Below are positions 858-53,027 of a stretch of 64,000 nucleotides of DNA, one piece after another. How positions within the stretch are numbered: position 1 is the first letter of the stretch; every line of letters begins with the position of its first letter. The stretch spans positions 38,663 to 102,662 of the forward strand of contig JAGAVG010000051.1 of NCBI GenBank assembly GCA_017942035.1, given 5' to 3'. Made by a program: the position numbers and the translations under genes. The notes under the pieces are model-generated. The model had not been told where the DNA came from. It did no database searches and was given only the letters and a program-made list of their open reading frames with translations. Origin of the DNA: a bacterium. Its GTDB lineage: Bacteria > Cyanobacteriota > Vampirovibrionia > Gastranaerophilales > Gastranaerophilaceae.

Positions 858-874
858 AAATTTATAATAACATA

Positions 875-1058
875 AAAAACGCACCAAACTTTATATTTTG
901 GTGCGTGTTTTTTATAGCCTTATTATACAATATTTTTAGACACTTTTCAAGTAGTGTTTTGTTGTTTTTTGTGAAATTTTTAAATTTTGAAAAGGTATGT
1001 TTTAGGGAGTTTCAGGTCGACTCGCACCAAAATATAAATTATGGTGCATGAATTTAAA
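875..1058 (+). repeat. Conserved pilin-upstream element, copy 1 (~185 bp). Left hairpin/terminator-like palindrome at 881-905 plus T-run; right palindrome at 1024-1047.
   Basis: Near-identical sequence recurs at 23748-23945 and 52840-53027. Each copy sits immediately 5' of a pilin-like gene. The left arm gcaccaaaNtttatattttggtgc has flanking A-run and T-run. The right arm is gcaccaaaatataaattatggtgc. Confidence 0.8.
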
Positions 1059-1087
1059 CGTCAGTTTATGGCTGGAAAGGAGACAGG

Positions 1088-2032
1088 ATGCTAGAATATA
1101 GAATTATGAAAGGAAGGAATTTGAAAGAGGATAATATGATAAAAAATAGTCATTGTAAGCCTGAAAAGATAACATGTCATGCTGAACGACAGATTGACCT
1201 CCGTGTTTCGGAATTTCATAATACTGAGACCCTGAAACGAGTTCAGGGTGACATGTTACAATCTCCTCGCTCCTTGTGGGAGAGGGTTAGGGTGAGGGGT
1301 CAAAATAGAGGAACAGTAAACAGTAGGGTAGACTTTAGTCTACCTGAAACAAATGGATTGCCACGCTCACTCCGTTCGCTCGCAATGACAAAGGCTTTCA
1401 CCCTAGCGGAAGTCCTCATCACTCTCGGGATAATCGGGGTTGTGGCGGCGATGACGCTGCCGGCAGTGATTCAAAACCATAGGAAACATATTGTTGAAAC
1501 AAGGTTAAAAAAATTTTACACAACAATAAATCAGGCTATTATGCTTTCGGAAGTTGACCATGGTGACAAAAGAGATTGGGATATCATGGATGTGGATACG
1601 CTATATAATGAATATATAAAAAAATACATTAAAAATATAAAGTCTGTGGATTATATGTGGGAAGACAGAAACTTAGAATATGTATATTTTACAGATGGAA
1701 GCGCTGTGTCACTAGATATGTATAACATAGACAATACTATTGGTATTCAATTTATATTTTATCCAGAGGCAAAATATATAGGAGCAAAGAATAATACTCC
1801 TGGCAAAACTTATTTTTTGTTTGCATTTTGGCCTAATGCGAAAACTTCCGGTTTTACGTTTCATTATAATAAAGGTGTCGAACCGTATAAAGCCTGGTGG
1901 AATGGAGACCCTGCAACTTTATCATCATCAATTTTTGGTTGTAACAATAGCGGCGGGAATAAATTCTACTGCACAGCATTAATTCAATACAATGGCTGGA
2001 AAATTCCGAAAGATTATCCATTTAGGTTTTAA
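1088..2032 (+). CDS. Type IV pilin-like / pseudopilin family protein (prepilin-type N-terminal cleavage/methylation motif), paralog 1. The start is ambiguous: 1088, 1136 or 1385.
   Basis: AFTLAEVLITLGIIGVVAAMTLP motif with Glu at +5 of Phe and a hydrophobic N-terminal helix. Alignment with the two other copies is given in finding 1. The ~100 codons upstream of MTKAF are open and stop-free. Confidence 0.75.
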   Translation: MLEYRIMKGRNLKEDNMIKNSHCKPEKITCHAERQIDLRVSEFHNTETLKRVQGDMLQSPRSLWERVRVRGQNRGTVNSRVDFSLPETNGLPRSLRSLAMTKAFTLAEVLITLGIIGVVAAMTLPAVIQNHRKHIVETRLKKFYTTINQAIMLSEVDHGDKRDWDIMDVDTLYNEYIKKYIKNIKSVDYMWEDRNLEYVYFTDGSAVSLDMYNIDNTIGIQFIFYPEAKYIGAKNNTPGKTYFLFAFWPNAKTSGFTFHYNKGVEPYKAWWNGDPATLSSSIFGCNNSGGNKFYCTALIQYNGWKIPKDYPFRF

Positions 2033-2108: not shown

Positions 2109-2363
2109 GCCGTGCTCCACGGGGAATTGCAATCCCTTGACCCGAAGTTAAGGCGGGGTGCAGAGTCTGTTGTGAGGGTTCGGCGGGCAACTTTGATAGA
2201 TTTATTATTGTTGACGATTAAAATCGTTATGGCGTAAGCTGTCGAACCGTGTCAGGATGGAAACATAGCAGCACTAAGACAATCCTTGCGGGTGTGATTG
2301 TTTTAATAAGAGATAGTAGGTTTAAAGATTTTGTCCGTTGCATTCGATAGACAGTTGCACGGC
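2109..2363 (+). ncRNA. ffs: Signal recognition particle RNA, long (Bacillus-type, Alu-domain-containing) form.
   Basis: GC-rich structured island in an AT-rich spacer. The 5' end gccgtgc pairs with the 3' end gcacggc, followed by a T-run terminator. The domain IV-like motif gtcaggatggaaacatagcagcactaag matches the conserved SRP helix 8 (GNRA tetraloop and AGCAGCAC internal loop). Confidence 0.6.
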
Positions 2364-9901: not shown

Positions 9902-11563
9902 ATGGAAATAAATATCAATACCCCAAAATTTGAACAGCAAAACAAAAAGTATAATTATAATAATCAGCAGACATTTACAGGTTTGGCTGATAATACGACA
10001 GCGCTTTTAAGATTTCTTGATACAAATCAGGCAATCGGTGCAAACTGTGTCGATTTAGGCTCTATGGTAATTCCTAGAACCACGGTTGACTTTATTAACC
10101 GCGGTCCTGATGCCGGAACTGAAACTGCCCGAAGAGAATCAATGGGTACGATTAACCATTCTTCTGTTGGACTTTACGGTACTTTTGCCGGTTTAATGAT
10201 TGCGGCCGGACTTAACAACAAATACGGTATTAAAGCTCACAAGATTTTTGCCGACAACCACACAATTGACACTATTGCTCAAAGCTGGCACGATGCTCAA
10301 AAGGCTAGTGATCCGTTGAAAGAGCATGTAAAAACTTTTGTTAACAGTATTAGAGTTTTAAATACTGATACTGAAAAAACAACCGGACACATTTCTATTC
10401 CGGAAAAAGATAAACAGGAAATTATTGATGCACTTTATAATCAGTTGAAAAATTCTAAAGACCAGACTATAGACAAAGATTTTGCAAAATCAATGCATGC
10501 AATGATTACCGCATCAACCGGCGGAGAAAAAACAGTTTACTTATTGTCAAAAGATAATAAAGAAGCACAAAACACACTGAAAACGTTGATTTCTAATTTC
10601 TACAATACAACGAAAGCATTTTCTACAGGTAAAGCTGTTGAAGCGTTCAAAAATTCAGCTGATGTTAACGGCAATGAGCTTGTTAAAGCCTTGAAGAAAA
10701 TGAACATCACGCGTTCTGCTATCGGTTTAGGTATTGCAACAGCAATTGGTGTATCAACTCAGCCGATAAACATGTATTTGACGAAAAAGAAAACAGGTAA
10801 AGATGGTTTTGTCGGAGTTGAAGGCAGAGAAAAAGATAACTCTTCAGAATTTAAAATGATGAAAACTATCGGAGCCTTAATTTTTGCTGGCGGAGCTCTT
10901 GCAACAATTACAACTAATCCGAAGAAATTCTTAAGCAAAATTCAATTCCAGGGAATGCTCCCGACAATTGATCAGCTTAAACTCGTCTATGGTATGACAA
11001 TTGCTTCAAGACTTCTTGCAGCAAGGGATAAGGATGAACTTAGAGAATCAGCAGTAAAAGATTCATTAGGATTTTTGAACCTCTTGATTTTAGGAAGCCT
11101 TGTTACTAAGGGGGCCGCAAGAGGACTTGATAAAACTCTTGTTAACGAAACAGTTTCTAAAGGTAAGAGCTGGTTTGGAAAATTCGCAGATTCAAGCCTG
11201 AAAACAAGAGATGAAGTTCTTCTTCCTCTTCTTAAAAAGAACGGAATTAATGTTGTAAAAGATGGAAAAGCTGTTCCGTTTAAAGATTTAATGAAAGAAG
11301 TTTCAAAACTTAATCCGGATGAACAAAAGGCGATAAAGAAAAAACTACGTGCTCTTAATATAGCTCAAATTGTCGGATATTTGTATTCAGGACTTGTTTT
11401 GGGTGTTGGAATTCCGAAACTTAACATCTATATGACAAACAAATCAGAAGCAAAACGCAAAGCAAAACTTGCACAAGCTAAAGCTGACAATGCTAATCCG
11501 GTGTTCAGCAGTGAAAATCAAGATTTTCTTAAATCAAAATACAAATCTTTTATATCAGCATAA
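9902..11563 (+). CDS. Hypothetical polytopic membrane protein, paralog B of the tandem pair.
   Basis: Same motif order as 8188-9888. Separated from it by 13 nt and preceded by an SD-like aaggaaaa. Confidence 0.6.
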   Translation: MEININTPKFEQQNKKYNYNNQQTFTGLADNTTALLRFLDTNQAIGANCVDLGSMVIPRTTVDFINRGPDAGTETARRESMGTINHSSVGLYGTFAGLMIAAGLNNKYGIKAHKIFADNHTIDTIAQSWHDAQKASDPLKEHVKTFVNSIRVLNTDTEKTTGHISIPEKDKQEIIDALYNQLKNSKDQTIDKDFAKSMHAMITASTGGEKTVYLLSKDNKEAQNTLKTLISNFYNTTKAFSTGKAVEAFKNSADVNGNELVKALKKMNITRSAIGLGIATAIGVSTQPINMYLTKKKTGKDGFVGVEGREKDNSSEFKMMKTIGALIFAGGALATITTNPKKFLSKIQFQGMLPTIDQLKLVYGMTIASRLLAARDKDELRESAVKDSLGFLNLLILGSLVTKGAARGLDKTLVNETVSKGKSWFGKFADSSLKTRDEVLLPLLKKNGINVVKDGKAVPFKDLMKEVSKLNPDEQKAIKKKLRALNIAQIVGYLYSGLVLGVGIPKLNIYMTNKSEAKRKAKLAQAKADNANPVFSSENQDFLKSKYKSFISA

Positions 11564-12539
11564 ATATTAATGCGGATATTACCATCGCCGGTCCAAACGG
11601 AAGATACGTAAGATTTTCTTGATCTTGTTTCAGACCTTTTAGAATTCTGTAACACAAGAACAAACCAATAGCGGCAAGAATTATTGCACCTATTATGTAT
11701 AATATAATACCATCATTAAATAATCCTGCCTGTTGGAGTGCAAAAAATAAAACAGTGTATCCCGCAAAACAAATCAGCGAAATCAATGTAACTTTATCAT
11801 TGCTGTTAATTAATTTTTTTATGAAAATCGGCAAAGTGAAAATCATTTGAACAATTATACTTCCTAACAGTACTATAATTGTGCTTTTCCAGCCTAAAAA
11901 CGCTCCAAGACCAGCCGCAATATATGTATCACCTTCGCCGAAAGCTCTGGTTCCCGCAAAAACATATCCGGCTCTTGCAAGAATTTCCATTATTAAAACA
12001 CCTGTTATAATACCTAAAATCGAGGTAGTTAATGGGTTGTGCAAAAGCATTTCTTTGTTTAGCACAAAGGTGTCGTTAGTTATATTTAAATATAATGAAA
12101 TTCCGAAAATTAGAAGTGAATAAAAAATTCCAACGCCGATAAGCGAATAAGTATGAGCGTCAAATACAACTTTTTCTTTAATATCAGTGCCGGCAATTAC
12201 TATCAATAGCGCAGATACAATCCAGATAAAGATTGTGTCGATTGAAATTCCGAATTTAAGAAATTCAAAAACAAAAATCAATCCGGTTAAAAGTTCAATA
12301 ATCGGGTATTGAATGCTGATGCGCTCTTTACAAAATCCGCATTTACCGCCAAGTAAAATATATGAAAGTACCGGAATATTATGCCACCATTTTAATTTGT
12401 TTAAGCATTTAGGGCATTTTGAAGGCGGAAAAACAATTGATTCTTCCGATAGGCTCCTTAATATAACCACATTTAAAAAACTTCCGATACATAAGCCTAT
12501 AACAAATACAAATGCAATTAATGCATATATTATGCCCAT
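11550..12539 (-). CDS. pilD: Prepilin peptidase (A24 family, type IV prepilin leader peptidase / N-methyltransferase).
   Basis: N-terminal GSFLNVVI...CPKC...C..C Zn-finger box and multi-TM A24 peptidase body. Consistent with the pilin-like substrates in this window. Confidence 0.85.
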   Translation of the reverse strand: MGIIYALIAFVFVIGLCIGSFLNVVILRSLSEESIVFPPSKCPKCLNKLKWWHNIPVLSYILLGGKCGFCKERISIQYPIIELLTGLIFVFEFLKFGISIDTIFIWIVSALLIVIAGTDIKEKVVFDAHTYSLIGVGIFYSLLIFGISLYLNITNDTFVLNKEMLLHNPLTTSILGIITGVLIMEILARAGYVFAGTRAFGEGDTYIAAGLGAFLGWKSTIIVLLGSIIVQMIFTLPIFIKKLINSNDKVTLISLICFAGYTVLFFALQQAGLFNDGIILYIIGAIILAAIGLFLCYRILKGLKQDQENLTYLPFGPAMVISALIFMLI

Positions 12540-13336
12540 TATTCTTCCTCACTTCCGGTTTTTATGATGTCATACATTTTACTTAAAGCTTTTTTAATTC
12601 TTCTGGAAACCTGCATTTGTGAAATTCCCAGCTTTTCGGAAATTTCTCTTTGATTAAGGTCTGCAATGTAACTAAGCTCAATAATAATTCTCAAATCTTT
12701 TGGCAATTTATAAATTGCACTTGATAACATAATTTTATTTTCGTAAGATTTTAAAAATTCCTGATAATCACCGGCCGGAATTTTATCAAGGAGAGTTATC
12801 TCGTCATCTTCACCTGTTAAAACCTGATCGAGCGAAAGCGCAGTCTTTGTATATTCAGCCTCCATAACCTCATGAACTTTCTTCGGCGAAATATTTACGG
12901 CCGCGGCAATTTGTTCTGCTGTCGGATCCTCAATACCTTCTTCATTAAATTTTTTTACAGCATTTGTTATTTTGTAAACCAGTTCTTGAAGTTCGCGCGG
13001 AGCTTTTATGATAGAACCTTTATCCCTGAGATAATGCTTGATTTCACCTTTTATAAAATAAGACATGTATGTTTTAAATTTTGTATTTTTTTCTTTATCA
13101 AAGAAATCAATAGCCTTAATCAACCCGATTGATCCGACCTGAACAAGGTCTTCCGTTGAAATTCCAGATTGAACAGAAACCGTTCCGGCAATTTTTCTTA
13201 CAAGATACATACACTTTTCAACTATTTGCAGATGAAACATTCTCTTTTTCTTTTCATCCGGGCATGTTTTGTAAAGCTCAATCAAATCTTCTATATCAAT
13301 ATTATTTACATCAATATTTTCGGACGTGTTTGTCAT
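12539..13336 (-). CDS. RNA polymerase sigma factor, sigma-70 family group 3 (SigB/SigF/FliA-like).
   Basis: Region 2 DLVQVGSIGLIKAIDFFD and region 4 LNQREISEKLGISQMQVSRRIKKA match the SigB/SigF type. The stop/start is adjacent to pilD, suggesting an operon. Confidence 0.8.
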   Translation of the reverse strand: MTNTSENIDVNNIDIEDLIELYKTCPDEKKKRMFHLQIVEKCMYLVRKIAGTVSVQSGISTEDLVQVGSIGLIKAIDFFDKEKNTKFKTYMSYFIKGEIKHYLRDKGSIIKAPRELQELVYKITNAVKKFNEEGIEDPTAEQIAAAVNISPKKVHEVMEAEYTKTALSLDQVLTGEDDEITLLDKIPAGDYQEFLKSYENKIMLSSAIYKLPKDLRIIIELSYIADLNQREISEKLGISQMQVSRRIKKALSKMYDIIKTGSEEE

Positions 13337-23747: not shown

Positions 23748-23945
23748 AAAAAATACACCAAATTTTATATTTTGGTGCGAGTTTTTTATAGCCTTATTAT
23801 ACAATATTTTCCGGCACATTTCAAGTGGTCTTTTGTTGTTTTTTGTGGAATTTTTGAATTTTGAAAGGGTATGTTTTAGTGAGTTTCAGGCCTGCATGCA
23901 CCAAAATATAAATTATGGTGCATGAATTTAAAGGATAATTTAAGA
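23748..23945 (+). repeat. Conserved pilin-upstream element, copy 2.
   Basis: Roughly 90 percent identical by eye to copy 1 and copy 3. Left palindrome 23754-23779 plus T-run, right palindrome 23898-23921. Confidence 0.8.
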
Positions 23946-23964: not shown

Positions 23965-24786
23965 ATGATAAATGAGGAACAGAAGGCAAGAGGTCAAGAA
24001 GGCAAGCGAGTCACGTCATTAAATACCCTCTCCCGAATTTGTAAGTTCGCATACTGCTCACTAACAAATTCAACCCTCTCACAAAGAGAGAGGGTATGTA
24101 GTAAAACTGCGTTTACGTTGGCGGAGGTTCTTATCACTCTCGGGATAATCGGTGTTGTGGCGGCGATGACATTGCCAGCGGTCATTGCTAATCATCAGAG
24201 TTCCGTATTACAACAACGGTTCAAAAAGGCTTACTCTTCTATGTCTCAGGTGTTTCAAAGGGTTGCGTTTGAAGATTATGGTGGAAATATGAATATAGAA
24301 TATACTCAATTTGGTGATATAATTGAAGCTTGCAATGAACGTATAATTAAATCATCGGTTTGTCTGTATGGACAAAATAATTGCGATACTACAATTTTTC
24401 CTTTTAAAAATTATGAGCATCCGGCTAATATAGGAAATTTTTTAGTCTCCAATTACGGTATAACTCAGTATGCAAACTTTATAAATGATGGGGTTCTTGC
24501 TCTTAATGATGGTACTTTTGTCATTTTTGATAATGGAGATCTTAGTGGAAAAACCTTAATTACAATAGACACAAACGGATGGAGAAACAAGCCGAACAAA
24601 GGCGGGGTTGATTTTTTTATGTTTGAATTAAAATCTAATGGTGCTTTAGTTCCGGTTGAAGATATTACACCTCCCTATGGAATTTCACCATTACAAAGAA
24701 ATACAAATTGTCTGTCAAATCCGGATGTCACTTGCACTTACGAGGCATTGAGTAATCCGGATTATTTCAAGAAAGTTAAAAAATAA
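23965..24786 (+). CDS. Type IV pilin-like / pseudopilin family protein, paralog 2, with a ~45-aa N-terminal extension.
   Basis: SKTAFTLAEVLITLGIIGVVAAMTLPAVI. The C-terminal IDTNGWRNKPNKGGVDFFMFEL motif is shared with paralog 3 (VDTNGLKRPNVLGRDVFDFYV). SD ggagga 9 nt before the ATG. Confidence 0.75.
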   Translation: MINEEQKARGQEGKRVTSLNTLSRICKFAYCSLTNSTLSQRERVCSKTAFTLAEVLITLGIIGVVAAMTLPAVIANHQSSVLQQRFKKAYSSMSQVFQRVAFEDYGGNMNIEYTQFGDIIEACNERIIKSSVCLYGQNNCDTTIFPFKNYEHPANIGNFLVSNYGITQYANFINDGVLALNDGTFVIFDNGDLSGKTLITIDTNGWRNKPNKGGVDFFMFELKSNGALVPVEDITPPYGISPLQRNTNCLSNPDVTCTYEALSNPDYFKKVKK

Positions 24787-36489: not shown

Positions 36490-38775
36490 TTAATCAATAT
36501 TAACCGGTTCTCTTTGAATTTTATCAATAGCTTCTCTAGCGGTAAATACCAAACTTTCCGGAACATTGTCAATCGTGGTAAATTGTCTTAAGACATCAAC
36601 AACACGCTTGAATGCCCTGACGATATCACCTTCACCCATTTCGATTTGTTCGGTAATCGTTTCCCATTCAGCCCCCTCAACCCAGAGTTCTATGAGGGAT
36701 GAAAAATACGGGTTAATATAACACGGTGCATCAACTAGGTATTCGTTTTGCAGCTTTTCGACTTTTCGCCTAATATTTCTAATCAAATTCAAAGTTTTGC
36801 GAACAGGTGTAGAGAATGGTAAATAAGGGATGTCAATTCTCAAATCCTCGGTTGTGATTGCGCAAATAACACCGGCAAGCTGGGAAGGTGTCAGATTTTC
36901 CAGTACATTCGAGAATATAATTTCAGCAAGGTAAAACTCGTTTTCCGAGCGAATTTGAGAGGTCGTAATACCTTTCGCTGTCGGATAATCGTTTACAAGA
37001 TAGCCGGCTTGAGAAAGTACTGCCCTGTGTGAAAGAAATTTATTCCAGAAAATATCCCTCTGGCGCTCGATTTCTTTTTCCAATTCTCTTTGTTTCCTGT
37101 TTATCCTTGAAACGACCTCGATATTTTTCGAGTGTTTTTTATAAAGCCTGCAAAAATCACAAGGCATTTTCTGCATTTTATGTAAAAGCTGCTTATTTTC
37201 GTTACCAAATTGCACAATCTCGGCAGAAAGCGGACGGTTTTTCGCTCTTTCCTGCTTGCATATTTTTTTGTAAGTCTGCCTGTTTTGAACGTAAATCGCG
37301 CGAACCTTGTCATATTCCTTTAAATCAGCATCTCCGAGTTTTGAAGGGCATACAAAATCACGTTCGGCAAGCTCTTTTTTGAAATTTTCCTGCTGTTTTA
37401 ATAGCGGGGTCAGCCTTGAACCGGAAGAAAAATACCCGAAAGATTTCATAACAAGCTCTTGCGCCTCTTCAATGCTAAAGCGTTGCAGAAGGTTTAACAC
37501 CATTGAATAACTCGGAGAAAATCTGCTTTCTAGAGGATTCGCGTCACTGAGCACAAGTTCCGCAACCTCTTCCGGTGACTGGAAAGGGGTTCCGACAACC
37601 GTAACGTAGCCGACTTCGTCCATTCCGCGCCTTCCGGCACGTCCTGACATCTGCAAAAATTCACTGGCCGTAAGCATTCTGTGACCGGAATCCGTTCTTT
37701 TACTCGTTGAACTGATAACCGTCGAACGCGCTGGCATGTTTATTCCTGCCGCAAGGGTTTCCGTTGCAAACACAACTTTTATCAGCCCCTGCTGAAACAA
37801 TTTTTCAACAAGACTTTTCCACCCCGGCAAAAGTCCGGCATGGTGCGAAGCAACACCGCAATATAAATAATCAAGATGTTTGTTGTTGTATAAATGCGGA
37901 TTTTCTGCGATATAATCATCAACAAACTGCCTGATTCTCGCCTGTTCTTCTTTTGTTATAAGTTCCAGTGAGGCGCATTTTTCCATCTGTTCATCACATT
38001 TTTTTCGCGAAAACGTGAAATATATAGCCGGCAGCATGTCATTTTGTTGAAGATTTCTTACAATATCTTTCACATGACTTTTTTGAGTGCTTTTTTTGCG
38101 GCCAAACTGGCGTTTTTCAGGCTTGATTTTTTTATTTAGCTGACCTGACGGAGTTAACAGCGGCAACAATTTATCCGGCTGAGAACTGTCAAAATAGAAA
38201 AATTTCAATGGCACCGGTCTAAAATCTGTATCAACAAGCTCAGTTTTAGAATGGACGGTGTTAATCCAAGCAGTGAGTTCATCAGCGTTTGCAACAGTTG
38301 CCGATAGCGCGATGATTTGAATATTTGTCGGGCAATAGATGATACTTTCTTCCCAAACCGTCCCGCGCTGTTCGTCATTCATATAGTGAACTTCATCCAG
38401 CACAACATATTTTACTTCTTTTAAATTATCCGCAACCGCTCCGAAATTCGTGCCGTAAAGCATATTTCGAAAAACTTCCGTTGTCATAACAACAATCTGC
38501 GCACCTCTGTTAATCGATGTATCACCGGTTAACAGTCCGACTTTATCCGAACCATATTTTTCACCAAAATCGTAATATTTCTGATTTGAAAGGGCTTTTA
38601 GAGGAGTTGTATAAAATATTCTTGAACCTTCTTCAAGCGCTCTATGAATTGCGTGCTGTGCGATTACGGTTTTTCCGGCTCCTGTTGGAGCGCACACAAC
38701 AACGCTTTCACCCTTATCTATATGCTCGCAGGCATCTTTTTGAAAATCGTCCAGTTCAAAAGGAAAATTATACAT
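36490..38775 (-). CDS. Ski2-like DEAD/DEAH (DEVH) box helicase.
   Basis: Walker A CAPTGAGKT, DEVH, SAT, HHAGL motifs. 761 aa with a C-terminal extension. Confidence 0.8.
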   Translation of the reverse strand: MYNFPFELDDFQKDACEHIDKGESVVVCAPTGAGKTVIAQHAIHRALEEGSRIFYTTPLKALSNQKYYDFGEKYGSDKVGLLTGDTSINRGAQIVVMTTEVFRNMLYGTNFGAVADNLKEVKYVVLDEVHYMNDEQRGTVWEESIIYCPTNIQIIALSATVANADELTAWINTVHSKTELVDTDFRPVPLKFFYFDSSQPDKLLPLLTPSGQLNKKIKPEKRQFGRKKSTQKSHVKDIVRNLQQNDMLPAIYFTFSRKKCDEQMEKCASLELITKEEQARIRQFVDDYIAENPHLYNNKHLDYLYCGVASHHAGLLPGWKSLVEKLFQQGLIKVVFATETLAAGINMPARSTVISSTSKRTDSGHRMLTASEFLQMSGRAGRRGMDEVGYVTVVGTPFQSPEEVAELVLSDANPLESRFSPSYSMVLNLLQRFSIEEAQELVMKSFGYFSSGSRLTPLLKQQENFKKELAERDFVCPSKLGDADLKEYDKVRAIYVQNRQTYKKICKQERAKNRPLSAEIVQFGNENKQLLHKMQKMPCDFCRLYKKHSKNIEVVSRINRKQRELEKEIERQRDIFWNKFLSHRAVLSQAGYLVNDYPTAKGITTSQIRSENEFYLAEIIFSNVLENLTPSQLAGVICAITTEDLRIDIPYLPFSTPVRKTLNLIRNIRRKVEKLQNEYLVDAPCYINPYFSSLIELWVEGAEWETITEQIEMGEGDIVRAFKRVVDVLRQFTTIDNVPESLVFTAREAIDKIQREPVNID

Positions 38776-39415: not shown

Positions 39416-39709
39416 TTAATCAGGAATTTTCTTTGGAAAGCCTTCAATTTTTACCAAATTTTGATTAAGGTCATGTTTACATCTCTTTATAAAAATTTTG
39501 ATTTTCATTAATTGCCGTTGCGTATGTTTAAACAAAATCATTTTTTGAGATACAATTTCGGCGGGAGCCGATAAAAGTTCAACACCGGAAAGTAAGCCGG
39601 ATTTAGTCATTGCGGAGGCTGTATCTTTAGCATCTGCGGCTAAATTTGCAATCCCTTTTTTGTTAATTACAATTCTTGCACCAAAACTCGGATTGTTATT
39701 TACTTGCAT
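39416..39709 (-). CDS. Small hypothetical protein, tandem paralog 1 (MQVNNNPSFGARIVINK...KKIPD).
   Basis: SD aaaggaaa. N-terminal 18 aa and C-terminal IPD are shared, with nucleotide identity, with 39733-40419. Confidence 0.5.
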   Translation of the reverse strand: MQVNNNPSFGARIVINKKGIANLAADAKDTASAMTKSGLLSGVELLSAPAEIVSQKMILFKHTQRQLMKIKIFIKRCKHDLNQNLVKIEGFPKKIPD

Positions 39710-39732: not shown

Positions 39733-40419
39733 TTAATCAGGAATTATTTTAACTACATCTTTTGCGGTTTTCTTTAGCAAATCAATGCCTACTCCACTGG
39801 TTATGCTGCCTGTAGAAGCTGTAGGAAGCATCGCAACGTGTAAAGCTTCACTTAAACCTCCATTATCATGTACGTTCCAATACTCGGCTTTCACTACATC
39901 TTCCGGTCTCGCGATAACATCATAACCGGATAGCGCAGATTGGCGGCAAGAGTTATTAGCCATATAATCCAGAACATTTTGCGGAAGATATTGAGACCCC
40001 AATGATGGAGCGTAAACTGCCTGATCCATCACTGATCCGGCAACACTTCCGGTTGAAGCAATTCCTGTTGAACATACACTTGACCCTAATCCTGCTCCAA
40101 CAGTGTGTACATTTTGAATTTCATTAGATTCCAATCTTGGCAAACCTTCAGATTCTACCAGGTTGCATACCGGTCTGGATACAAAATCTTCAGACATTGC
40201 ACTCGCTTCGTTAAAAGATTTGCTTGTTAACTCAAATGGATCCTTACCTTTTAACGCCGCAGATGGGCAAGATGCCGTTTCAACACCGCTCATAGATGTT
40301 GCACTCATACTTTTAGATATAATATTTGAGCCGTCACGAACATTTTCAGCTAAATTCCTAAAATCTCTTTTGTTAATTACAATTCTAGCTCCAAAACTCG
40401 GGGTATTATTTACTTGCAT
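39733..40419 (-). CDS. Small hypothetical protein, tandem paralog 2 (MQVNNTPSFGARIVINK...KIIPD). Start placed at the internal Met, not the ORF-track start at 40551.
   Basis: SD ggaaagg precedes the ATG at 40419. The region upstream of that start is nucleotide-similar to the upstream region of paralog 1. Confidence 0.5.
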   Translation of the reverse strand: MQVNNTPSFGARIVINKRDFRNLAENVRDGSNIISKSMSATSMSGVETASCPSAALKGKDPFELTSKSFNEASAMSEDFVSRPVCNLVESEGLPRLESNEIQNVHTVGAGLGSSVCSTGIASTGSVAGSVMDQAVYAPSLGSQYLPQNVLDYMANNSCRQSALSGYDVIARPEDVVKAEYWNVHDNGGLSEALHVAMLPTASTGSITSGVGIDLLKKTAKDVVKIIPD

Positions 40420-40540
40420 GTTTAACTTTCCTTTCCATTTTTTATAATATTTCAAAAAACAGACAGAAAAAAAATTGCTAGTATGTAATGAAATGTTAAG
40501 AAGTAAAATGATAGACTTACAAATTCGGGAAAGAAGATAA

Positions 40541-40614
40541 AACCATGTCATCCTGAACTTGTTTCAGGATCTCTGTATTATGAGATTCCGAAACAAGTTC
40601 GGAATGACATGGTT
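40541..40614. repeat. Composite inverted repeat: 11-bp outer stem enclosing two local palindromes (cctgaaN5ttcagg and ccgaaN5ttcgg).
   Basis: The arm aaccatgtcatcctgaacttgtttcagga and the reverse complement of tccgaaacaagttcggaatgacatggtt match at about 25 of 28 positions. Confidence 0.6.
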
Positions 40615-40692
40615 ATTACGTAAATTCATAGTGTCTCAGTATCTTAGTGCCTTTTATTTAATCGGATTGCCGTAATGACGAATTTCTCAATT

Positions 40693-52682: not shown

Positions 52683-52839
52683 AACCTTTTACCCCTTATT
52701 AAATTAATTGTAAATAACCCTTTACCTTTATAATTTAATAAACAATTTTCTGTTTCAAAAATTGCCTTTTTGTTAAGTTTTGTTAAACAATCGGCGTAAA
52801 AGAGCATAAAATAAGATGTTTTGTAAAAAAAATAATGCA

Positions 52840-53027
52840 CCAAATTTTATATTTTGGTGCGAGTTTTTTATAGCCTTATTATACAATATTTTCCACCAAT
52901 TTTCAAGTGGTCATTTGTCGTTTCTTGTGAAATTTTTAAATTTTGAAAAGGGTATGTTTTAGTGAATTTCAGGCCTATTCGCATCAAAATATAAATTATG
53001 GTGCATGAATTTAAAGGATAATTTAAT
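52840..53027 (+). repeat. Conserved pilin-upstream element, copy 3.
   Basis: Left palindrome 52847-52861 plus T-run, right palindrome 52981-53004 (one G-U wobble). Near-identical to copy 2. Confidence 0.8.

Follow-up and report, generated by a model that had tools for sequence, protein, structure and literature searches.

What occupies the long stop-free stretches that lie between the start codon and the prepilin motif in two of three pilin-like paralogs, and how could a pilin gene bear them? The question is raised by 64,000 nucleotides of DNA from a gut member of the Gastranaerophilaceae (Cyanobacteriota; Vampirovibrionia; the non-photosynthetic "Melainabacteria"), taken from contig JAGAVG010000051.1 of a metagenome assembly (positions 38,663 to 102,662, assembly GCA_017942035.1) and called the window here, in which three open reading frames (ORFs), par1, par2 and par3, carry the prepilin motif. 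Prepilin leaders are 6–26 amino acids (aa) long where they have been characterised, and about 15–30 aa in type IVb; they normally remain on the cytoplasmic side, where the peptidase cuts (2015 review, PMC4471445). Only par3 has a leader of this size, those of par1 (87–103 aa) and par2 (49 aa) falling outside the range. Five or more kinds of repeat module, all GC-rich, self-complementary and dispersed in the genome, are combined as mosaics in the inserts of par1 and par2. Judged from sequence, the probable explanation is that structured selfish repeats have lodged in frame in prepilin leaders, where they would most likely be translated and then discarded.

Stop-free leaders in two of three paralogs

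1088..2032 (+), par1, pilin-like gene; 314 aa in the public annotation; mature domain DUF6613
23965..24786 (+), par2, pilin-like gene; 273 aa
53048..53692 (+), par3, insert-free pilin-like paralog; leader of 9 aa
1088..1396 (+), leader-coding segment of par1, stop-free; 103 codons (ATG 1088) or 87 (ATG 1136)
1397..1480 (+), conserved prepilin N-terminus of par1 (FTLAEVLITLGIIGVVAAMTLP..); predicted cleavage directly before F at 1397
874..1068 (+), upstream block of par1, with a bidirectional terminator-like hairpin at 879–906 and a second, inverted hairpin copy at about 1020–1047
23748..23942 (+), upstream block of par2
52830..53024 (+), upstream block of par3
11550..12539 (-), prepilin peptidase gene (A24_N_bact + Peptidase_A24; PF06750 1.1e-33, PF01478 1.6e-8)

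The three paralogs score 18.6, 18.8 and 21.5 bits with TIGR02532 (cut-off 16.3), match PF07963 as well, and carry a glutamate at position +5 of the mature protein (F1-T2-L3-A4-E5). Par1 matches DUF6613 over positions 2–199 of 200. Its AlphaFold2 model has a predicted local distance difference test (pLDDT) score of 38–53 for residues 1–100 and mostly above 90 afterwards, and consists of a long N-terminal helix (106–158) followed by a beta-sheet; searches against solved pilin folds did not place the DUF6613 domain securely, and the fold evidence is weak. The same three proteins occur on ENA contigs of sample ERZ28654807, and the named relatives belong to Candidatus Gastranaerophilales or Gastranaerophilaceae.

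In par3, nine codons lead up to the F codon (MINNDKRYA|FTLAEV), just as the initial annotation of this DNA had described, together with stop-free in-frame inserts ahead of the motif in the two other paralogs. Both inserts are borne out. The par2 leader has 49 codons (ATG 23965, F codon at 24112), and its SD-preceded start (SD, Shine-Dalgarno sequence) is the only in-frame ATG, GTG or TTG ahead of the motif. For par1 the count is 87 codons if the shared ATGATAAA at 1136 is the start and 103 if it is ATG 1088, which has the better SD (AAGGAG), and the leader is stop-free in either case; the feature first drawn at 1088–1384 is present and runs on to 1396, the F codon beginning at 1397. That chance alone would seldom leave such segments open had been argued beforehand and is supported by the counts: par1 1136–1396 (261 nt) stays open in frame in 23 of 5000 dinucleotide-preserving shuffles, while its other five frames hold 2–13 stops, and par2 23965–24111 stays open in 246 of 5000, its other frames holding 1–6. 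The inserts are also GC-richer than their surroundings (0.44–0.46 vs 0.357 for the window), as had been claimed, and fold more strongly as RNA than shuffled sequence (z = -4.5 for the par1 insert and -2.2 for that of par2).

A shared start region and mature N-terminus had been recognised in the three genes, and both are real, yet the sharing goes further. It takes in a near-identical upstream block of about 195 nt and an N-terminal coding block of about 87 nt, which encodes AFTLAEVLITLGIIG(V/I)VAAMTLP. The upstream block also precedes relatives in L008, L010, L012, L014 and L016; L008 to L016 are related contigs fetched through protein look-ups together with their flanks, L008 coming from the same sample as the window.

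Module anatomy and dispersal of the repeats

1149..1389 (+), composite repeat insert of par1, with inverted arms GTCATTGTAAGC (1149–1160) and GCTCGCAATGAC (1378–1389)
23974..24013 (+), M1 in par2, a purine-rich repeat (GAGGAACAGAAGGCAAGAGGTCAAGAAGGCAAG..)
1308..1316 (+), M1 fragment in par1 (GAGGAACAG, common with par2)
1170..1258 (+), M2 in par1, a long hairpin with arms 1170–1187/1241–1258 enclosing a ccctgaa..ttcaggg hairpin
1263..1299 (+), M3 in par1, a BoxC/PIT/TMECO-type triplex repeat (CTCCTCGCTCC ttgt GGGAGAGGG tta GGGTGAGGG)
24020..24100 (+), M4 in par2, a triplex-like pyrimidine-pyrimidine-purine repeat (ACCCTCTC .. ACCCTCTC acaaa GAGAGAGGGT)
1322..1389 (+), M5 in par1, hairpin 1327–1334/1337–1344 plus ggattgcc..gctcgcaatgac
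40515..40662 (no strand assigned), intergenic repeat cluster containing part of M4, a double M2 palindrome and an arm module; none of the six frames is free of stops

The idea of a small inserted element, put forward at the outset, was right in spirit; each insert is nevertheless a mosaic of several dispersed modules and not one element. The two hairpins reported in the inserts exist (1229–1236/1242–1249 and 24073–24080/24088–24095). As for the two short motifs said to be common to the inserts, GAGGAACAG occurs exactly twice in the window, once per insert (1308 and 23974), while GGGAGAGGGT lies at 1278 in par1 and on the opposite strand, at 24025, in par2. The arms of the par1 insert are 12 nt long and 83% complementary. 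M4 holds a 37-nt hairpin (24035–24071) between its first two blocks; M5 encodes SRVDFSLP..LAMT and supplies an internal ATG of par1 at 1385. Peptides encoded in par1 1136–1384 include SLWERVR and VDFSLPETNGLPR.

The same modules recur between genes. Multi-module intergenic clusters lie at L008 15090–15390 and 17335–17600, L010 2287–2446 and L012 7031–7308, and single matches at L013 18943–18978 and L011 4011–4029. M1 has intergenic copies in reverse orientation (L010 2287–2318 and 2369–2402; L012 7074–7099), and further M2 copies are found at 40544–40595 of the window, L008 15123–15287 and L014 9939–10003. M3 runs forward in par1 and in the leader L010-A, and is reversed in L010-B, where it encodes NPSPQPSPTRGEG. 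The M4 copy in the L010-A leader is 98.6% identical and an intergenic one at L008 17528–17597 93%, while a 98-nt M3-M4 segment of the L010-A leader is 96% identical to intergenic L008 sequence. The intergenic cluster at about L008 15099–15240 has arms like those of par1 and several of the same modules. Modules are also nested: a 114-nt element, bounded by 8-nt terminal inverted repeats, interrupts M5 in the L008 leader, and its reverse complement interrupts M3 in an L008 intergenic cluster. Because they occur in both orientations, nest within one another and are copied as units, the modules are best described from sequence as dispersed, mobile-looking repeats.

Two simpler schemes were dropped. 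The duplicated ACCCTCTC in par2 is part of a triplex-type pyrimidine-pyrimidine-purine unit and not a target-site duplication, and a single miniature inverted-repeat transposable element (MITE) per gene does not fit homologous leaders that differ module by module. A 54-nt BoxC unit is flanked by the direct repeat TC(A/G)TTACATA..CCCTC; no clean, recurrent rule of target-site duplication emerged for the inserts and modules compared. The intergenic clusters at L008 15045–15420 and 17300–17640 are large palindromes with long inverted arms (ggcactaagatactaagacg... / ...cgtcttagtatcttagtgcc), arms that appear translated in the leaders of other family members as LVPQYLSALVP.

M3 is the one module with a name. 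It is 88% identical over 49 nt to a repeat for which 5365 of the 5426 complete E. coli genomes have matches, in a median of 14 places each, one copy sitting between fepB and entS, and it matches plasmid-collection records from Klebsiella, Sinorhizobium, Aeromonas and Azospirillum. Against the BoxC/PIT/TMECO consensus, CCCTCNCCC N3-6 GGGNGAGGG N3 GGGNGAGGG (PMC4666352), par1 M3 is exact in blocks 2 and 3 and in the TTA loop and has two mismatches in block 1, which is intact in the BoxC copies of L010-A and L016. By sequence, then, M3 is a repeat of the BoxC/PIT/TMECO intrastrand-triplex type, with the same layout of pyrimidine, purine and mirror purine blocks. Holder et al. (2015, PMC4666352) describe these repeats as widespread and highly conserved, with large numbers in enterobacteria and cyanobacteria, report that those of E. 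coli K-12 lie without exception between genes, and link them to local instability of the genome. Unlike the K-12 copies, M3 lies inside an ORF, in either orientation and in par1 with a degenerate first block: BoxC is found within the par1 ORF and within the leaders of L010-A, L010-B and L016, besides an intergenic copy at L008 17360–17516. In the phage and plasmid searches no module other than BoxC was matched, and M1, M2, M4 and M5 went unmatched in the E. coli collection too.

How leaders come to differ is suggested by a fourth paralog, at L008 10001–10933, which joins a par1-type 5′ end and M5 to a par2-type body (90% identical over 681 nt), the leader segments that separate these parts being unrelated; a CAG-to-TAG change at about 10610 splits this gene into two ORFs. 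Moreover, the closest relatives of the par2 mature domain (62–77% identical) carry three different leaders, one of which is the par2 leader plus the BoxC unit. From this chimera and these differing leaders we infer that the upstream block and the N-terminal coding block probably act as homology arms that exchange leader cassettes.

Reading frame and competing explanations

Are the repeats actually read? Five leader clusters have no stop in the pilin frame, while 24 of their 25 other frames hold 1–12 (the exception being the -1 frame of L008, with none); of four intergenic clusters built from these modules, three are interrupted by stops in every one of the six frames. Had related genomes shown stops in the homologous segments, this would have spoken for untranslated DNA; 9 of the 11 leaders that bear modules have a frame that runs open from an SD-ATG lying before the modules. 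The two others are a poly-G frameshift and an apparently 5′-truncated, frameshifted gene. A homologous SD-ATG stands in frame with FTLAEV in eight genes, whose leaders have 9, 18, 49, 57, 67, 69, 87 and 115 codons. Comparison of the aligned relatives, which had been suggested as a check on mobility, reveals module polymorphism as well as the dispersed copies, and the differences preserve the frame: the 54-nt BoxC unit is present in L016 (just upstream of M4) and in L010-A and absent from par2, M2 of par1 has 39 nt more than the L010-A copy (within 1182–1225), the element inside the L008 M5 measures 114 nt, and par1 and L008 differ by 171 nt. Where single bases are lost, the frame shifts briefly and returns, through a -1 deletion followed by a +1 about 28 nt later in the M5 of L010-A, and through a -1 combined with a -11 in that of L014(-). 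Long translated leaders, as first proposed, thus have pilin-frame-only openness, the lack of any other start in par2, indels in multiples of three and compensated frameshifts on their side as indirect evidence.

In the reading we favour, repeat clusters would sit between the start codon and A|FTLAEV because the leader peptide is discarded, whereas everything else that a pilin gene encodes is kept. A repeat copy would persist there only if the reading frame stays open, and for that reason the genes are most likely translated through the repeats. Translation would run from the conserved SD-ATG and yield hydrophilic, net-positive, unstructured leaders of 49 (par2) and 87–103 residues (par1). These leaders would not leave the cytoplasm, and the product of the A24 prepilin peptidase gene at 11550–12539 would cut them off. 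The leader peptide of par1 is indeed hydrophilic, with a net charge of +7 or +8, and the long leaders in general carry +5 to +8, have no hydrophobic stretch and are predicted by modelling to be unstructured. With the two shared blocks as homology arms, leader cassettes could be swapped and reshuffled between paralogs. The repeats would need no function of their own, and side effects might include strong mRNA or DNA structure, lower expression and local instability.

Several points weigh against this reading. Three of the leaders compared were found through protein calls, which favours open frames, and the leader clusters share modules copied as units, so that they are not fully independent tests of frame. 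Leaders of 49–103 aa exceed the reviewed prepilin range and, if translated, would be two to four times longer than the 6–26 residues on record. Glycine at -1, described as critical (PMC4471445), is replaced by alanine in par1, par2 and par3. With a start at the internal ATG 1385, par1 would have a canonical leader, MTKA. The Pfam scan of window ORFs (30 of the 56 ORFs of at least 130 aa) revealed neither a transposase nor a REP-associated tyrosine transposase (RAYT; REP, repetitive extragenic palindromic). None of the three paralogs was found to have a sigma70-like promoter on the plus strand of its upstream region, so that expression itself is uncertain. Finally, the mature domains of 4 of the 11 long-leader relatives (L008, L010-A, L013 and L014(+)) are truncated or frameshifted, which hints that heavily invaded copies may be decaying.

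Could the insert-bearing paralogs then simply be silent or decaying, with repeats accumulating under relaxed selection and the open frame a relic of cassette copying? The damaged mature domains and the missing forward promoter both point that way, as does the copying of composite segments as units, the 98 nt common to a leader and an intergenic cluster being an example. The mature domains of par1 and par2, however, are full-length, that of par1 with a near-complete DUF6613 match and a high-confidence model. Compensating indels and module indels exclusively in multiples of three argue for ongoing frame selection, and the block ahead of par3, which has a short leader and no insert, is the same and promoter-less as well; the missing promoter is therefore no mark of the invaded genes. 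General decay is, in our judgement, unlikely, if the best placed of the alternatives.

Under a second alternative, the leader would be a selected hot spot of variation, its repeats and, in relatives, homopolymers driving on/off switching or the exchange of cassettes among paralogs, and an invertible promoter block lying upstream might serve as a further switch. The instability reported for TMECO repeats (PMC4666352) would suit such a role. Leader content does differ between close paralogs, GGG occurs in 19 and PPP in 4 of 84 long leaders, and in one relative, L011, an SD-ATG and a G9 tract leave a 185-codon open leader one base out of frame; inverted repeats in the upstream block surround a conserved, outward-facing promoter. 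Par1 and par2 themselves, on the other hand, have no such tract, the window being free of G or C runs of seven or more, all eight upstream blocks adjoining a pilin gene share one orientation, with no opposite-orientation copy seen there, and no recombinase lies nearby among the scanned ORFs; the instability is equally explicable as a by-product of selfish repeats. A selected hot spot accordingly looks doubtful. Just as doubtful is its fullest form, in which gut Melainabacteria would combine the leader segment and the inverted-repeat-flanked promoter block into a multi-gene variation system that expresses and reshuffles one or a few pilins at a time; triplex and hairpin repeats and poly-G could then be sites of programmed instability or recombination, and the invertible promoter could switch paralogs on.

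The least probable of the three is an untranslated, structured 5′ leader, with the start just before the motif (in par1 ATG 1385, giving MTKA|FTLAEV, or GTG 1292 behind the SD-like purine block of BoxC) and repeats acting as mRNA structure on stability or translation: the strong folding of the par1 region, a leader like the family's canonical MKKA and MTRA, and the fact that in several relatives M5 likewise supplies this ATG, ending 4–5 codons short of the cleavage site, are in its favour. Against it, an untranslated leader would have no need of indels in multiples of three, compensated frameshifts or openness in a single frame. An internal start at 1385, which the initial annotation had offered as an alternative, is conceivable for par1 only, as par2, L010-A and 69 of 84 long-leader relatives lack a proximal methionine; even in par1 this ATG has no SD (the family's real starts have strong ones) and lies inside the stem 1378–1389.

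Parallels and the wider family

For selfish repeats read through within a gene, the nearest analogy would be the Rickettsia palindromic elements (RPEs) and other intragenic MITEs. RPEs are short palindromic repeats found in frame within genes and read through, members of the same families also lying between genes (PMC10969869). The likeness, palindromic repeats in frame and also intergenic, is one of description, and no sequence relationship is claimed. Unlike RPEs, which are single units of about 150 bp in many unrelated genes, the repeats described here form nested mosaics of 35–115-nt modules; within coding sequence they were seen solely in the cleaved leaders of a single gene family, and one module is BoxC/TMECO.

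The bacterial interspersed mosaic element (BIME)/REP clusters of enterobacteria are mosaics of short palindromic modules in variable order and orientation, and are mainly extragenic. To these may be added the BOX elements of pneumococcus (mentioned in the review PMC10969869). Both resemble the present clusters as mosaics of short palindromic modules between genes, variable in order and orientation; they differ in being mainly extragenic, and in that here no RAYT or other mobilising enzyme turned up among the window ORFs scanned.

As class III signal peptides, the leaders have the expected hydrophilic, positive stretch, FTLxE and hydrophobic helix, with an A24 peptidase gene present; they depart from the class in their lengths (49 and 87–103 aa), in Ala-1, and in consisting of repeat DNA rather than a conserved propeptide. 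Phase-variable leader repeats, such as the poly-G tract in Neisseria pilC and the CTCTT repeats in opa, offer another comparison: in both settings unstable DNA lies in the leader-coding part of genes for surface structures, and the L011 relative has its G9, while par1 and par2, unlike those genes, carry no simple-sequence tract.

Were the long precursors made and processed, prepilin peptidases would have to tolerate leaders several times the textbook length and of arbitrary, repeat-encoded sequence, which matters for pilin prediction tools and for the annotation of gene starts. The genes would also offer a second clear setting, after Rickettsia, for selfish palindromic DNA inside coding sequence, and BoxC/TMECO copies inside ORFs, in both orientations, would be natural material for testing the effect on local instability.

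How far does this extend beyond the window? Among 234 relatives retrieved by the mature domain alone, called leaders range from 4 aa (MKKA|FTLAEV) to 160 aa, and in 84 of them, more than a third, the annotated leader exceeds 30 aa. A methionine stands 3–15 residues ahead of the cleavage site in just 15 of these 84. Certain peptides encoded by repeats recur in the long leaders and make patchworks of them (for example CHAELVSASH/MLKQVQHD, PxGERVRVRG, RLRNKCAMT and KRTYSLINLFSYSL). Residue -1 is alanine in 185 of the 234 and glycine in 49, so that alanine is the family norm, a majority that is unusual for class III signal peptides.

When the par1 leader was searched exhaustively against proteins, an approach not sensitive enough for short modules, five matches resulted, namely par1, three further pilin-family leaders and one unrelated repeat protein; this shows that other called proteins do not commonly contain the modules. 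The viral-contig search found only three loci, and a genome scan with the par3 protein, made through non-conserved peptides, a single locus.

In L011 (235–800), a strong SD-ATG is followed by the G9 tract and a stop, and the +1 frame is then open for 185 codons up to FTLAEV, which by its sequence looks like a slipped-strand phase switch. In some relatives, among them L011 (about 727–800) and many of the family proteins, two copies of the prepilin motif flank a short insert, as in AFTLAE-GATHVAHWNNSRKIA-FTLAEV, and L012 5889–5965 holds a triple copy; these duplications suggest unequal recombination or insertion at the motif itself.

The upstream block has features of its own. Two mutually inverted hairpin repeats of 24–28 nt enclose about 115 nt, and the only strong sigma70-like site (TTGAAA-17-TATAAT, 11 of 12 matches), with invariant hexamers and a variable spacer, lies on the minus strand (950 to 922 in the par1 block), facing away from the pilin gene into the bidirectional terminator. 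The block might be an invertible promoter in its OFF state, or the source of a small divergent transcript. A 22-mer from it had no match in the genome scan. An extra copy stands at a contig end (L010 13032–13206), head-to-head, beside a trypsin-like gene and with no pilin gene visible, an arrangement that could be an assembly break at a repeat or an inverted structure.

Elsewhere in the window, a bacterial large signal recognition particle (SRP) RNA (RF01854, 81 bits) lies just 3′ of par1, at 2110–2362 (+); it is the only Rfam match in the window, with nothing above threshold in 800–1480. The prepilin peptidase gene directly adjoins a gene for a sigma-70 family factor (12539–13336, -). At 39416–39709 and 39733–40420 (-), two tandem paralogous ORFs without a family assignment start with MQVNN(N/T)PSFGARIVINK, and the repeat cluster at 40515–40662, just upstream of them, artificially lengthens the longer ORF call.

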